A stretch of 5,173 bases of DNA from a virus (taxonomy: Duplodnaviria > Heunggongvirae > Uroviricota > Caudoviricetes): the IMG/VR virus record IMGVR_UViG_2740892270_000017. One strand, written 5' to 3'. Positions 18 through 5,173 of the stretch are shown piece by piece. The first letter of the stretch is position 1. The number at the start of each line of letters is the position of its first letter. Below the pieces are notes generated by a model that saw nothing but the letters and a program-made list of their open reading frames with translations, searched no databases and was not told where the DNA came from. The position numbers and the translations under genes were made by a program.

Positions 18-675
18 TTACTTTAAACACTGCTCGGTTATGTATTGCTGAGCACCTTCAAGTTGGGCCTGCATCATTACCAGTCGTTCCCGGAGGGTGA
101 AATAATCCCGTTCAGCGGTGTCTGCCAGTCGGGGGGAGGCTGCATTATCCACGCCGGAGGCGGTGGTGGCTTCACGCACTGACTGACAGACTGCTTTGAT
201 GTGCAACCGACGACGACCAGCGGCAACATCATCACGCAGAGCATCATTTTCAGCTTTCGCATCAGCTAACTCCTTCGTGTATTTTGCATCGAGCGCAGCA
301 ACATCACGCTGACGCATCTGCATGTCAGTAATGGTTGCGTTCGCCAGCTTCAGTTCTCTTGCGTTTTTGTCGCGCTGCTCTTTGTAGGTAATGGCGTTAT
401 CACGGTAATGATTAACAGCCCANNNNNNNNNNNNNNNNNNNNNNNNNNNNNNNNNNNNNNNNNNNNNNNNNNNNNNNNNNNNNNNNNNNNNNNNNNNNNN
501 NNNNNNNNNNNNNNNNNNNNNNNNNNNNNNNNNNNNNNNNNNNNNNNNNNNNNNNNNNNNNNTCGCGCTGCTCTTTGTAGGCGATGGCGTTATCACGGTA
601 ATGATTAACAGCCCACGACAGGCAGACGATGATGCAAATAACCAGAGCGGAGATAATCGCGGTTACCCTGCTCAT
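18..675 (-). CDS. Rz: Rz i-spanin (inner-membrane spanin subunit); reading frame interrupted by N run 423-562 flanked by a 53-bp direct repeat
   Basis: Minus-strand translation 563..675 gives [37 protein letters not shown] (N-terminal TM anchor) and 18..422 gives [29 protein letters not shown]...TEQCLK; both match the lambda/21 Rz protein as I recall it. ATG at 675..673 overlaps the endolysin stop TGA 674..672 (ATGA). Stop TAA at 20..18. The two visible pieces are offset by 193 nt (out of frame), so the exact structure across the gap is unresolved. Confidence 0.8.
77..262 (-). CDS. Rz1: Rz1 o-spanin (outer-membrane lipoprotein spanin subunit), embedded in the +1 frame of Rz
   Basis: 61-aa [64 protein letters not shown]: signal peptide with lipobox VVGC, Thr at +2, proline-rich mature part, wholly inside Rz in another frame. 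This is the classic lambda-type Rz/Rz1 architecture. Confidence 0.85.
370..615. repeat. 53-bp direct repeat (370-422 and 563-615, 2 mismatches) flanking N run 423-562 inside Rz
   Basis: tcgcgctgctctttgtagGTAatggcgttatcacggtaatgattaacagccca (370-422) versus tcgcgctgctctttgtagGCGatggcgttatcacggtaatgattaacagccca (563-615). Both copies encode the [11 protein letters not shown](T/A)YKEQR segment of Rz. Confidence 0.8.
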
Positions 676-1169
676 TGTTGACCCCACAAACAGACTTCAC
701 GCTCAATCTCACGACGGGTCATCAGCCCTTTCCATTGCTTACCGCCAGCATATGTCCAGCGACGTAGCTGATCACATGCGCCTTTGATATCGCCCTGGTT
801 TATTTTGCGAAGAAGCGTCGATGTTCTGAAATTACCAGCACCCACGTTGTAAACGAACGAGTAAAGAGCGCCGCGCGTTGTTTCCGGTATATCGACTTTG
901 ATGTACGGGTTAATTTGTCTGGCGACAGTGGCAAGGTCTTTATTCAAGAGTGTTTTGCATTCTGCTTTGGTATACGTTTTACCGAGCATGATGTCTTTTC
1001 CTGTATGCCCGTGACATACAGTCCATACACCAACAATATCTTTGTATGGTATGTAGCTGACACCTTCCAGACCATCGTTACCACTTGGGCCAGTGATTAA
1101 CACTGATGCTATAGCAATTGCTCCGCCACCAATAGCAGCAGCAACGACTTTTCGTAATGATGGAGGCAT
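672..1169 (-). CDS. R: SAR endolysin (phage-21 R-type lysozyme, GH24 family) with N-terminal signal-anchor-release domain
   Basis: 165-aa [60 protein letters not shown]... has a Gly/Ala-rich weakly hydrophobic N-terminus (SAR domain) followed by Glu35, Asp44 and Thr50 at the positions of the T4-lysozyme-type catalytic triad. Start ATG 1169..1167 overlaps the holin stop TAA 1171..1169 (TAATG). Confidence 0.9.
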
Positions 1170-1384
1170 TATTCACCTCTCGCAGCCTTGCGCTTATCTT
1201 CTTTAATCTTGAAATAAAGGTTTGTCAGGTACGTCAGCAGGCCAAATACCAGACTACCCAGCACACCGATTGCAGCCCACTGTGACGGAGTTACTCTATC
1301 GAGCAACTGTAAAAACCAGTAGCCAGCACTGCCTGCGGAGGTGCCGTAGGCAATGCCTGTTGAAATTTTGTCCATGGATTTCAT
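1169..1384 (-). CDS. S: Class II holin / pinholin (S21-type) with dual-start motif MKSM (antiholin S71 / holin S68)
   Basis: Translation from ATG 1384..1382 gives [71 protein letters not shown] (71 aa), two TMDs and a charged C-terminus. Strong SD GGAGGTGAGG lies directly upstream (minus strand, 1397..1388). A second Met at codon 4 gives the classic dual start. A pinholin paired with a SAR endolysin is the established phage-21 arrangement. Confidence 0.9.
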
Positions 1385-1486: not shown

Positions 1487-1510
1487 ATAAAAAGCTCGCC
1501 GTAGCGAGCT
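1487..1510 (-). terminator. Rho-independent terminator (minus strand) upstream of the holin; candidate tR'-like late terminator
   Basis: Plus 1493-1499 agctcgc pairs with 1504-1510 gcgagct (7-bp stem, loop cgta). On the minus strand the stem is followed immediately by TTTTTATATT (1492..1483). It lies about 105 nt upstream of the S start. Confidence 0.6.
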
Positions 1511-1635: not shown

Positions 1636-2031
1636 CTAACCTCGCATGTCAAAGCCAGATTTCTGAAAATCTCTGTAGACTTCCGGATTGTTGAAGGCCG
1701 GAAATTTGGCTTTATGAGCTGCGGACTTTATCGCTTCGCAATAGGCTTTATCACCGTTACTGGTAGATATTTTTAACGCCGTGCCATCCTGAGAGAATTC
1801 CATATGCAACCTGCATTTTTTCCCTTTCCAGTTATGCGGCTCATCAAGTTTGGCATTAATTGCAGCTCTGATTCCCCGCGCTTGCGCCCCCCATTCATCC
1901 TGATCATCCCAGCGTCCTGAACTGCAACTACCTGTAGCAGTAGTTTTGTGGCAATCTGAAGGGTGTAAAGGTGTGCATCCCGCAACAAAACCGACCCAAA
2001 AAGTCAACATAACGATTTTCTTTAATCCCAC
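1636..2031 (-). CDS. Lipoprotein with divergent TolA C-terminal (domain III)-like domain; paralog of 2182..2610
   Basis: 131-aa ORF, GTG start at 2031..2029 preceded by SD GAGGAG with 6-nt spacing. Signal peptide MGLKKIVMLTFWVGFVAGC with lipobox VAGC, Thr at +2. C-terminal part ...GKKCRLHMEFSQDGTALKISTSNGDKAYCEAIKSAAHKAKFPAFNNPEVYRDFQKSGFD aligns by eye with the TolA-III-like domain of the neighbouring gene (GK.C.L, GD..C, PEVY.F). Stop TAG 1638..1636. Confidence 0.75.
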   Translation of the reverse strand: MGLKKIVMLTFWVGFVAGCTPLHPSDCHKTTATGSCSSGRWDDQDEWGAQARGIRAAINAKLDEPHNWKGKKCRLHMEFSQDGTALKISTSNGDKAYCEAIKSAAHKAKFPAFNNPEVYRDFQKSGFDMRG

Positions 2032-2181
2032 TTCTTGCTCCTCAATCCATTAAAATCTCAGCAATAGTAGTTGTTACGTCCGCCACTGGCTCAGAGCTGA
2101 CTATCCGCTAAATTTAGCTCAGTGCCGTAGCTGTGTCAGAACAAACCTAAGCCGAAACCGTTTATTACAAAACAATAAATA

Positions 2182-2610
2182 TCAGGGTTTAAAATCCAGC
2201 ACCCCATTTTGAAATACTTTATATACTTCCGGCGAAGGGGGGGCAGGTATATCAGCATTCTTTATCGCATTCATCGCTTCACGACATAAATCGAGGTCTC
2301 CACTTTCTCTTTTAACCTCCAGTAGAAGGCCATTCGGGGCCATATGCATTCTCAGTGTACACTCTTTTCCTGAATACTTACTCGCATCCCCGAACTGTTT
2401 TTCGATGGCGCTCTTGATTTGATGGGCATACAGACGGATATCCTCACTAACATCAGAAGTACGTTCAGATGAACTCACATACTGTGTCTCTATTGCTTTA
2501 TCGGAGTAATATGATGTACGGTCATGATAATTTGTCGATACAGCATCAGTGCACCCGATAATAATCCCACTAATAATCAACGTAAGAATTGATGCGCTAC
2601 GAAAACCCAT
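2182..2610 (-). CDS. Lipoprotein with TolA C-terminal (domain III)-like domain; predicted outer-membrane-anchored periplasmic protein
   Basis: 142-aa ORF, ATG 2610..2608 with SD GAGG upstream. Signal peptide MGFRSASILTLIISGIIIGC with lipobox IIGC, Thr at +2. The C-terminal ~85 aa, YAHQIKSAIEKQFGDASKYSGKECTLRMHMAPNGLLLEVKRESGDLDLCREAMNAIKNADIPAPPSPEVYKVFQNGVLDFKP, closely resemble the C-terminus of E. coli TolA as I recall it (...AGQIKSAIESKFYDASSYAGKTCTLRIKLAPDGMLLDIKPEGGDPALCQAALAAAKLAKIPKPPSQAVYEVFKNAPLDFKP), including the conserved Cys pair. Stop TGA 2184..2182. Confidence 0.85.
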   Translation of the reverse strand: MGFRSASILTLIISGIIIGCTDAVSTNYHDRTSYYSDKAIETQYVSSSERTSDVSEDIRLYAHQIKSAIEKQFGDASKYSGKECTLRMHMAPNGLLLEVKRESGDLDLCREAMNAIKNADIPAPPSPEVYKVFQNGVLDFKP

Positions 2611-2639
2611 TTTTCCTCACATATGTCATATAGTAAAGG

Positions 2640-2669
2640 ATTATATATACCGTTGTTTTGGACGCTCAA
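2640..2669 (-). promoter_or_regulatory. Sigma70-like promoter for the TolA-like lipoprotein gene at 2182..2610
   Basis: Minus strand: -35 TTGAGC (2669..2664), 18-nt spacer, -10 TATAAT (2645..2640) inside GTATATATAAT, about 30 nt upstream of the ATG at 2610. Sequence match only. Confidence 0.45.
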
Positions 2670-2774
2670 ACAGCGAATCAGATCAAATAAAACGCACATT
2701 TGTTAACATTTACACAAAGTCTGCGTGGGATATTCTGAAAGAATATCCATAATGTGGAGAGAATCTATTGAAGT

Positions 2775-2877
2775 GCATGGTGCCGGGTGCCTCCCGGTGA
2801 ACAAAATGTTCGTGATACCTGTCGGCGACAGAAAAGGTTAATGGTATCACCCCACCGCACAGGGGGATTCACCATGC
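2775..2877. repeat. Highly structured imperfect palindromic element, ERIC/IRU-like intergenic repeat (tentative)
   Basis: An outer 8-bp stem, gcatggtg (2775-2782) with caccatgc (2870-2877), encloses four hairpins: ccggg/cccgg (2783-2797), gaaca/tgttc (2799-2811), gtgatacc/ggtatcac (2812-2850) and cccc/gggg (2850-2866). The right end GGGGATTCAC (2863-2872) matches the terminal motif of enterobacterial ERIC repeats as I recall it, and GGGGTGA is nearby on the minus strand. Confidence 0.3.
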
Positions 2878-3200
2878 AGGAGTTTTCTTAGCAAACTCAC
2901 TGCGCGCCCGGCAACTCCCAACCACATAAAATGCGGAGTTTGTGGCATTTATGCATATAACTCGCAGGAATTATCTTAAAAAACTGATGTCGATCCGGAT
3001 TAAAAAGAAGCAGGTCATCATCAGATGACTGGAAAAAAGGAAAACAAAAAATACTCATCATACAGTTTTGATTGCAGGGATGAGCCTGCTATGCACAATA
3101 TGCAGAATATAAGCAAGATAAAAATATGCAGGCATATTATTTCGGATCTTGTTATTAACACAACCTTTTTAATAATCATTTGGCATACAATAAACCAGCC

Positions 3201-3227
3201 CAAAAAGAACCGCCTAAACAGGCGGTT
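3201..3227 (-). terminator. Rho-independent terminator-like hairpin (minus-strand orientation)
   Basis: Plus 3208-3214 aaccgcc pairs with 3221-3227 ggcggtt (7-bp stem, 6-nt loop). On the minus strand the stem is followed by CTTTTTGGG (3207..3199). Confidence 0.5.
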
Positions 3228-3481
3228 GGTCAATACAAAGGATGCTTCGTCTTTATTATAGTAATCTGAGGCGTCGGGTGTCTTGTATCAGACAACATAT
3301 TGTCCCGCTAAACAGCGAATTACAAACCACCCTGCAATGATCTCTCATCTCATTTTATATGAGTTGACGACATCAGGATAACGCATCATCAGCCCCTGCC
3401 AAGAAATATCAAAACTCCCGCCAGCAATGTGTTATCACAATATTGTAAAAAAAACACAGCACCGAAACTATAACTGGTCTC

Positions 3482-3496: not shown

Positions 3497-3575
3497 CAGA
3501 AAGACCAGTTGCCCAACTAGCAGCATTCTCCCCTGCTTTCCTGACGTAAAAAAACCGCATTAAGCGGTTTTTTTA
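3497..3575 (+). ncRNA. Candidate ~80-nt small RNA from the extended -10 promoter to the bidirectional terminator; antisense to the region just downstream of the Q-like gene
   Basis: Predicted start about 7 nt downstream of the -10 (around 3497); end at the T7 tract of the 3545-3577 hairpin. No ORF with an RBS lies in between. Prediction only. Confidence 0.2.
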
Positions 3576-3577
3576 CG
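3545..3577. terminator. Strong bidirectional intrinsic terminator (perfect 14-bp palindrome) about 80 nt downstream of the Q-like gene
   Basis: cgtaaaaaaaccgc (3545-3558), loop attaa, gcggtttttttacg (3564-3577). The GC core ccgc/gcgg is flanked by A7 on one side and T7 on the other, giving a U-tract after the stem on either strand. Confidence 0.65.
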
Positions 3578-3654
3578 ATGTCCATGTCTGCAATCCGCCT
3601 CGCGATACAGCTTTGCGAAGCATAGCAAAATTGAAGCAGTTTATACGTAAGAAA

Positions 3655-3994
3655 TCAAGCCATTTTCTCAGCAAATGATTCACGCATGGGAATATATAGG
3701 GCATACTCAGCAACAGCTAACCAATTAGCAATCCGTTTTTCGCATGTGCTAAAACACCACTCTGGGTGTGCATCATTTAGCAATTCAGCCATTTTGCGCT
3801 TAGTCATCCCCCGCCCTTCATAGCGTTGCCGGAGAATGCAAATCAATCCTGGATGCTCTGCCAGCACCTCACTTATGACTCGATCAATACATAACGCCTC
3901 TGCATCAGTACAATGCGCCAGCCAGCTCTTTTGCTTGCCGTTGATCATCTCTCGCAAAAACGCTTCCAGCTCAGCTTTCTCTATTCCCGCTTTT
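3655..3994 (-). CDS. Q-like late-gene regulator (putative antiterminator), C-terminal 113 aa visible; N-terminus lies in N run 3995-4215
   Basis: Visible translation ...KAGIEKAELEAFLREMINGKQKSWLAHCTDAEALCIDRVISEVLAEHPGLICILRQRYEGRGMTKRKMAELLNDAHPEWCFSTCEKRIANWLAVAEYALYIPMRESFAEKMA, stop TGA 3657..3655. It is the last gene after the nin-type genes and before the moron/lysis region, which is the Q position in lambdoid phages, and has an HTH-like segment (GMTKRKMAELLN). The assignment rests on synteny; I cannot confirm the family from memory. Confidence 0.45.
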
Positions 3995-4451: not shown

Positions 4452-5020
4452 NNNNNNNNNNNNNNNNNNNNNNNNNNNNNNNNNNNNNNNNNNNNNNNNN
4501 NNNNNNNNNNNNNNNNNNNNNNNNNNNNNNNNNNNNNNNNNNNNNNNNNNNNNNNNNNNNNNNNNNNNNNNNNNNNNNNNNNNNNNNNNNNNNNNNNNNN
4601 NNNNNNNNNNNNNNNNNNNNNNNNNNNNNNNNNNNNNNNNNNNNNNNNNNNNNNNNNNNNNNNNNNNNNNNNCGCCGTATCCCGGGTTCTACGAGTCGCA
4701 ACGGTGTTAAGGTATTGCTCTGCGGCATCACTCAGGGCTGGCGTGTGTTCCCGACCAACTGATTCGCACAGGTAATCAACGAAACCAGACAGCAGTTCTC
4801 GTTCGCGAGGCGTGATCGCCCCACCGACCGGAGTCCAGTAATCGAATCCCAGTTGCAGGAGTTTGAAAAAACGCTTGTGGAATGCGTAGTTACGCACACG
4901 CTTAAAGTCTGCGTGTATCCACTCACCTATTTTGATTTGATGCAGAAAATCGCAACTCTCCGGCGTCGCCGGGAGAAGTAAACCAGAAGAGGTTTGTTTG
5001 ACCAGTTGTATATGCGCCAT
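4442..5020 (-). CDS. Lambdoid nin-region protein (possibly YbcN/DUF1367-like); N-terminal 116 aa visible (4673..5020), remainder masked
   Basis: ATG at 5020..5018; visible translation MAHIQLVKQTSSGLLLPATPESCDFLHQIKIGEWIHADFKRVRNYAFHKRFFKLLQLGFDYWTPVGGAITPRERELLSGFVDYLCESVGREHTPALSDAAEQYLNTVATRRTRDTA. If the N run has its true length, the frame ends at TAA 4444..4442 (192 aa), overlapping the expected YbcO-like start. Family assignment is from position next to the YbcO-like gene, not verified. Confidence 0.55.
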   Translation of the reverse strand: MAHIQLVKQTSSGLLLPATPESCDFLHQIKIGEWIHADFKRVRNYAFHKRFFKLLQLGFDYWTPVGGAITPRERELLSGFVDYLCESVGREHTPALSDAAEQYLNTVATRRTRDTAXXXXXXXXXXXXXXXXXXXXXXXXXXXXXXXXXXXXXXXXXXXXXXXXXXXXXXXXXXXXXXXXXXXXXXXXXXFT

Positions 5021-5173
5021 TTCTCAATCTCTCGATGGCGCAGCGCAGCAGATGCCAGTTGTTCAGGCTGACGAATAAAGTATAAATAAACTGGCTATGG
5101 TGTAAAGCCCCACATAGCATGAACAAACACTACATATCAAATAGCTGGTACAAGGATAGAAATACGACACTTA

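Follow-up and report, generated by a model that had tools for sequence, protein, structure and literature searches.

A sigma70-like site, TTGAGC-N18-TATAAT, was identified directly in front of two genes for small lipoproteins that carry the C-terminal domain of TolA, in the late region of an E. coli/Shigella lambdoid prophage of the Rac type. Its sequence and setting suggest that it may be a functional sigma70 promoter, driving Q-independent transcription of the two genes at a basal level in the lysogen, with termination at 1510-1493, a reading that we consider quite possible but advance only tentatively. The site is plausibly an ordinary moron promoter, with a cargo more interesting than the promoter itself. 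The items that are unusual beside it are the lipoproteins with TolA domain III and the STnc100 RNA units as repeated linkers.

The window, the whole stretch of 5,173 nucleotides that was analysed, carries every gene on the minus strand. It was assigned to a Rac-type lambdoid prophage because an identical stretch adjoins trkG in E. coli LD39-1, and a Shigella flexneri chromosome also carries an identical copy. The gene order on the minus strand is DUF1367, a partly masked DUF1364-type gene, a DUF1133 Q-like gene, about 1 kb of non-coding DNA, the two lipoprotein genes, and the holin, lysozyme and Rz genes. Phage homologues of the DUF1133 Q-like gene carry the annotation antitermination protein Q. 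The cargo cassette, flanked by the Q-like gene and the holin gene, lies inside the Q-dependent late operon and consists of an STnc100-family RNA unit without a terminator, a 110-nt AT-rich leader, the two lipoprotein genes and an intrinsic terminator. The main features are the following.

3655..3993, minus strand: 3' part of the DUF1133 Q-like antiterminator gene (DUF1133 E 4e-58; Phage_antitermQ E 6e-5), the remainder being masked by N
2721..2907, minus strand: STnc100/PasD-family unit (RF02076), 86.6 bits in Rfam (gathering threshold 47), E 3e-18, full model length
2182..2610, minus strand: gene 1, encoding a 142-aa lipoprotein (lipobox IIGC; PF06519 E 2.4e-23; PDB 1s62 E 5e-28; phrog_5772)
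1636..2031, minus strand: gene 2, encoding a 131-aa lipoprotein (lipobox VAGC) with a diverged TolA C-terminal domain (Pfam E 1.3e-14)
1493..1510, minus strand: predicted intrinsic terminator between the cassette and the holin gene, AGCTCGCTACGGCGAGC then TTTTTATATT, with a hairpin of -13 kcal/mol (z -2.9) and a U-tract
1169..1384, minus strand: essD-like holin gene of the P21 type, with which the lysis cassette opens
672..1169, minus strand: lysozyme gene, with Rz after it

Candidate promoter, terminators and the predicted transcript

Re-reading of the minus strand confirmed TTGAGC-N18-TATAAT at 2669..2640, with a score of 10/12 in the promoter scan. The preliminary description had placed this site about 30 nt upstream of the ATG at 2610 and had noted a Shine-Dalgarno sequence after it; both observations hold, with 29 nt between the -10 hexamer and the ATG. 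The elements of the site are given below.

2664..2669, minus strand: candidate -35 hexamer TTGAGC, matching TTGACA at 4/6 positions with the TTG kept
2646..2663, minus strand: spacer GTCCAAAACAACGGTATA of 18 nt, at the upper end of the 16-18 nt range
2640..2645, minus strand: candidate -10 hexamer TATAAT, 6/6 matches, without a TG extension
2633..2634, minus strand: predicted transcription start, placed only by the usual distance of 6-7 nt past the -10, which would give a leader of 23-24 nt
2615..2618, minus strand: Shine-Dalgarno-like GAGG, 4 nt 5' of the ATG at 2610

After TATAAT, the minus strand continues with CCTTTACTATATGACATATGT, GAGG (2618-2615), AAAA and the ATG at 2610. The sequence features of a sigma70 site are present, namely a TTG-bearing -35, A2 and T6 in the -10 and a spacer of suitable length. 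The optimum for sigma70 spacers is 17 nt and 18 nt is suboptimal; a perfect TATAAT with a TTG at 18 nt usually yields measurable activity. The lacUV5 promoter, TTTACA-N18-TATAAT, shares the perfect -10 and the 18-nt spacer, and the geometry of the site is therefore compatible with strong, activator-independent transcription. The two differ in the -35, which matches the consensus at 5/6 positions in lacUV5 (TTTACA) and at 4/6 in the candidate site (TTGAGC).

Chance expectations for promoter matches were estimated with dinucleotide-preserving shuffles. A match of at least 10/12 on the correct strand was obtained in 4.8% of shuffles of the 110-nt leader (2611-2720, GC 0.32) and in 6.5% of shuffles of 2611-2760. 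Over the whole window, 3 matches at 10/12 were found against 1.37 expected (P(>=3)=0.15), and 14 at 9/12 against about 8 to 9 expected (sd about 3). All 3 matches at 10/12 lie on the coding (minus) strand in non-coding DNA. The candidate site ties for the best sigma70-like site of the whole window and is the joint-best on the coding strand between the Q-like and holin genes. A chance match at the 5% level is not rare, because about eight gene starts in the window were open to the earlier reader. The motif is thus real and somewhat better than chance; it is mildly improbable as a chance match and not statistically compelling.

Other elements of the leader were also considered. A CRP-like site (TGTGT-N6-TAACA, 2716-2701, 2 mismatches) was rejected, since 2.4 such matches are expected per window. 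The possibility that the leader from 2723 to 2650 is a relic of an STnc100 5' flank, with the -10 at an insertion junction, was likewise set aside, as a profile of 13 flanks matched it only at E=0.69. No hairpin that would mask the Shine-Dalgarno sequence in long transcripts and be absent from the short one was found (fold z 0.35 to 0.5 against shuffles). Elsewhere in the window, a 10/12 promoter-like site, TTTACA-N16-TATACT (5079-5106, minus strand), ends 58 nt upstream of the DUF1367 start at 5020 and may be the promoter for the DUF1367, DUF1364 and Q-like genes.

Three terminator-like hairpins were observed upstream of the cassette, and one weaker promoter-like site inside it.

3546..3576, minus strand: strong tR'-like terminator, GTAAAAAAACCGC-TTAAT-GCGGTTTTTTTAC, -19.7 kcal/mol, z -5.2, just downstream of the Q-like gene
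3208..3227, minus strand: second terminator-like hairpin in the interval from the Q-like gene to the cassette
3014..3029, minus strand: third, weaker terminator-like hairpin, z -3.9
2111..2139, minus strand: weaker promoter-like site CTGACA-N17-TAAATT, 9/12, in the 150-nt spacer between the two lipoprotein genes

The hairpin at 3576-3546 is probably tR'. With three terminator-like hairpins upstream, one terminator downstream and a sigma70-like site in front, the predicted layout of the cassette is that of a textbook moron, whose architecture was reportedly defined by Juhala and Hendrix as genes with their own promoter and their own terminator. The slot is variable, the downstream terminator is predicted, and the base composition differs, at GC 0.36-0.45 over 1400-2800 against 0.47-0.52 in the lysis genes, a modest difference. 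In an O157-type prophage (L020), the DUF1133 Q-like gene and the same holin family flank TerB, DUF3927 and an esterase.

Were the site active in vivo, transcription would begin near 2634, and a short-leader transcript would span both lipoprotein genes and stop at 1510-1493, so that the repressed prophage could make small amounts of the lipoprotein pair. On induction, polymerase modified by Q would arrive from upstream and pass all terminators, and the same genes would be transcribed as late genes. No terminator was predicted between the two lipoprotein genes, which fits a self-contained moron; their co-transcription is a proposal. The 150-nt spacer had been described as having no equally clear promoter; this stands in so far as the best match there is only 9/12, although a promoter-like site is present at 2139-2111.

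Two further elements were observed between the Q-like gene and the cassette. An isrK-like match at 3548-3621 (minus strand) is weak and below threshold (21.6 bits, E 0.17); it lies between the Q-like gene and the terminator at 3576-3546, where a short pR'-type transcript is expected. Additionally, a 10/12 promoter-like site, AAGACA-N18-TATAAT at 3284-3255 (minus strand), is followed within about 30 nt by the terminator at 3227-3208, and the two could produce an RNA of about 47 nt. No Rfam match was found at 3200-3284 on this strand.

Distribution of the leader and the cassette

A 130-nt query over the leader (2596-2725) was present in 788 of 5426 complete E. coli genomes (about 14%, or about one in seven), and in 779 of these 788 it was at least 99% identical. 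Furthermore, 80 viral contigs are near-identical, and the genome scan yielded no more than a single Shigella copy and some relatives at 27-32% identity. Because nearly all copies are near-identical, their conservation is uninformative on promoter use. Among 86 related, near-identical loci the -10 TATAAT is invariant and the -35 TTGAGC is changed once to TTAAGC and once to TTGAGT; the few leader SNPs are clustered at the -35/spacer boundary.

The cassette is mosaic in its surroundings. Five loci on two prophage backbones share 100% identity from about 2801 to the ATG. The same cassette and leader are found behind two unrelated antiterminators, the DUF1133 type in Rac-like prophages and a 273-aa Antiterm type in Qin/mEp460-like phages, and therefore move as a unit. 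In 42 of the 86 loci, similarity to the window breaks at 2791-2801, within the conserved STnc100 core, which indicates that the cassette moves with the leader and the 3' half of the RNA unit. The linkage of leader and cassette reflects a recombination site, not selection on the promoter.

Divergence that could be informative is scarce, and in the diverged orthologous loci, namely the 91% and the 65-74% alleles, the hexamers were not conserved. The 91%-identical allele (P0007; loci L010-L013) keeps TTGAGC and has TGTAAT as its -10, and the promoter scan gives no match; the gene is intact on many contigs despite this hexamer. The A-to-G change falls at the most critical -10 position and counts against the promoter claim. 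The 65-74% alleles lie about 280 nt downstream of tRNA genes with leaders unrelated to that of the window, and no equivalent promoter site was found in them, the best being a 9/12 match 130 nt upstream. The predicted promoter site is, across these alleles, no conserved trait of the gene family.

Some minor observations were made in the same loci. In IMGVR_UViG_2648501784_000010 (L102, about 83-112), an IS1 end (…AATAAGTTGGAGTCATTACC) lies directly against CGGTATATATAAT, which places IS1 between the candidate -35 and -10 hexamers, and a similar truncation is seen in H140. IS insertions were rejected as a signal, as in six records they lie between gene 2 and holin or far upstream, not around the promoter. 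In the case of the 74% allele of gene 1 (P0023), found on short metagenomic contigs (L014-L016), the N-terminal part of the protein matches the 65% allele type. The part that was aligned, namely the last 50 nt or so of gene 1 together with the 150-nt spacer and the beginning of gene 2, shows 100% identity with the window. This allele looks like a recombinant.

The STnc100 unit and alternative routes of transcription

Directly upstream of the candidate promoter lies an STnc100 unit (2907-2721) that was overlooked in the preliminary description. Compared with canonical copies, which score 120-179 bits, the window copy is low-scoring, and it is probably a related, non-canonical member of the family. 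Two of its elements bear on the transcription of the cassette.

2885..2914, minus strand: STnc100-type promoter-like motif TTGCCG-N18-TAAGAA, 7/12, a weak version of the family motif
2728..2748, minus strand: AT-rich 3' hairpin of the unit, GGATATTCT-TTC-AGAATATCC then CACGCAGAC, without a U-tract

Canonical copies end with GCCCCTCTCCGGAGGGGC followed by TTTTTT, and the family consensus has a 3' intrinsic terminator made of a GC-rich stem and a U-tract. The hairpin at 2748-2728 is not an intrinsic terminator, because it lacks the U-tract, and no terminator was predicted between 2907 and 2610; transcripts begun at the window copy could therefore enter gene 1. A position-fixed TTG[TC]C.-N17/18-TA.... 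motif is common to 17 distinct STnc100 copies, ending 8-9 nt 5' of ATGGTGAATCC, and the sequence between the hexamers varies among these copies. This motif is a candidate family promoter, and if it is one, the RNA would begin at the base of the main stem, some 30 nt into the Rfam model. The 5' flank of the window copy matches the family profile with an E of 1.3e-13. STnc100 is transcribed in EHEC EDL933, where one copy was seen by Northern blot (PMC5331693), and RpoD binding has been reported at STnc100 promoters in Salmonella LT2 (PMC10794520). This prophage RNA family was recently tied to PasD (bioRxiv 10.64898/2026.05.13.724894).

STnc100 units were also observed in tandem, with up to four in one array, in the gap between Q and holin genes of related lambdoid prophages, where they flank cargo such as the nanS-p esterase. 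Units were located in L019 (2444-3423), L018 (1526-2641), L011 (2704-2877, 3599-3803 and 3854-4061) and L017 (3530-3739). With the cassette breakpoint inside the STnc100 core in 42 of 86 loci, it is as if the units were recombination linkers, and a rather doubtful possibility is that they serve as portable promoter-and-recombination linkers that move such cargo between prophages. In the O157-type prophage L020, the AgvB (anti-GcvB) sRNA gene (2384-2445, plus strand) is convergent with, and abuts, an STnc100 copy (2446-2638, minus strand). Another RNA considered was sRNA-17 of E. coli K1, which was RACE-mapped in an mEp460-like prophage (PMC7719688); a reading of its primers and alignment against the window sequence gave no sign of it there.

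The STnc100 unit offers an explanation of lysogen transcription that would leave the site at 2669-2640 little or nothing to contribute. Transcription would start at TTGCCG-N18-TAAGAA (2914-2885) and run through the terminator-less STnc100 unit, whose RNA would act as a structured leader of about 270 nt, possibly processed. We regard this as unlikely, though deserving of weight, on sequence grounds. The full-length Rfam match of 86.6 bits, the 3' hairpin without a U-tract and the absence of a predicted terminator from 2907 to 2610 are in line with it, as are the motif fixed in position in the 17 copies, the profile match of the window flank, and the transcription and RpoD binding known for the family in EDL933 and LT2. 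The cassette is, moreover, always accompanied by at least the 3' half of an STnc100 unit, and in the 65-74% alleles, too, the gene follows RNA genes (tRNAs) without an intervening terminator. However, the window motif matches at only 7/12 positions and its -10, TAAGAA, is without the final T; the literature consulted gives no established 5' end for STnc100 RNAs, and a structured leader of 270 nt may be cleaved or Rho-terminated. Initiation at the STnc100 motif and initiation at the sigma70 site are compatible and not mutually exclusive.

A different view is that TTGAGC-N18-TATAAT arose by chance in AT-rich DNA, or is kept silent, and that the two genes appear only in the Q-dependent late transcript after induction; the lipoproteins would then have a lytic-cycle role, such as disturbing Tol-Pal and the outer membrane at the time of lysis. 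H-NS frequently silences acquired DNA that is AT-rich, which counts against promoter use, and the GC of 32% in the leader is typical of H-NS targets. The weak chance estimates (4.8% of leader shuffles; P=0.15 for the window) and the loss of the motif in sister alleles point the same way, and the genes are co-oriented and placed directly between the late promoter region and the holin gene. On the other hand, a perfect TATAAT with a TTG at 18 nt usually shows measurable activity, host-receptor-domain mimics such as Cor and Llp are typically exclusion factors expressed in the lysogen, and the dedicated terminator after the pair and before the holin gene is of the kind that a self-contained unit requires. 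We consider expression restricted to the late transcript improbable rather than remote. The nanS-p gene (z1466), a cargo of the same slot, is among the late genes most strongly induced by norfloxacin, and yet it benefits lysogens (review PMC8065619). Both modes of expression can therefore coexist.

The claim that the lipoprotein pair is expressed in the lysogen from its own promoter consequently survives in part: the moron layout fits it, but the site is unconserved in the family and the STnc100 unit provides a second Q-independent route.

TolA-domain lipoproteins and comparable cargo

The C-terminal 86 residues of the gene 1 product are 60% identical to domain III of E. coli TolA, and the gene 2 product is 34% identical to the same domain. 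Both genes belong to phrog_5772, a family of unknown function, and no PADLOC defence-family match was obtained for the lipoproteins. Gene 2 may start at GTG 2031, preceded by GAGGAG 6 nt upstream, or at ATG 2010 as annotated by PGAP. Domain III is common to both products and E. coli TolA (1s62, 1tol, 3qdp, 2x9a); full-length TolA PDB chains comprise 421-433 aa, in contrast to 142 and 131 aa here. In both products a lipoprotein signal peptide replaces the TolA anchor helix and helical domain II, and the proteins are predicted to be anchored in the outer membrane. The two genes are not TolA orthologues, because neither encodes the membrane anchor helix or the long helical domain II. PGAP annotates gene 1 as 'tolA' in some records and, for an identical sequence, as an N-terminally truncated pseudogene in others. 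Both annotations are misleading, and 'tolA' is a misnomer.

Known morons of lambdoid phages include bor and lom of lambda and gp15 of HK97. The cassette resembles them as an extra block among late genes, with a sigma70-like site before it, a terminator after it, a differing base composition and envelope products, and in that related prophages carry different cargo between the same flanking genes. It differs in having two paralogous genes and an STnc100 unit at its 5' boundary, and in that its expression in the lysogen is only predicted. Cor (phi80, N15 and mEp phages) and Llp (T5) are small lipoproteins that block FhuA and carry no TolA domain. They resemble the present pair as small lipoproteins encoded by phages, with a presumed role at the envelope against colicins or phages that try to enter; unlike the FhuA blockers, the phrog_5772 family has the TolA domain and no known exclusion phenotype. 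In Stx and related prophages, nanS-p cargo occurs together with STnc100/PasD RNAs in the region between Q and holin genes (bioRxiv 10.64898/2026.05.13.724894; PMC10462455). It shares with the present cassette the slot between antiterminator and holin genes, the STnc100 units before it and the flanking DUF1133 Q-like gene and holin family, whereas here the cargo is a TolA-domain lipoprotein pair and the adjoining STnc100 copy lacks the canonical terminator.

The 60% identity to the host domain makes an exclusion role of the lipoproteins a reasonable guess. More specifically, by displaying a near-copy of that domain they might act as periplasmic decoys for invaders that need to take hold of TolA, namely group A colicins and Ff-type filamentous phages, or as modulators of Tol-Pal, which from the domain similarity we rate as rather doubtful; if this were true and expression constitutive in lysogens, they would represent an undescribed class of tolerance or exclusion determinant. 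The activity of the candidate site bears on these readings. If it is active, the TolA-mimic lipoproteins would be lysogenic-conversion genes and not lysis-phase genes, which would direct attention to tolerance of colicins or filamentous phages, or to an altered envelope, in the 14% or so of complete E. coli genomes with the cassette. If it is inactive, both genes would be part of the late programme, and a function close to lysis would gain in likelihood. In either case the promoter itself is routine, and its value lies in being a handle on an uncharacterised, widespread cargo family. A literature search on TolA-like prophage lipoproteins, their accession numbers and transcription starts returned no relevant paper, and neither mapped starts nor reporter results for these genes came to light in it.

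Relatives of gene 2 were additionally observed on conjugative plasmids of the IncI1/B/O type, with more than 600 plasmid records matching. In pHUSEC41-1 (NC_018995.1; L021, 2504-2935), a gene with about 87% DNA identity to gene 2 is located 67 nt downstream of the relaxase gene.
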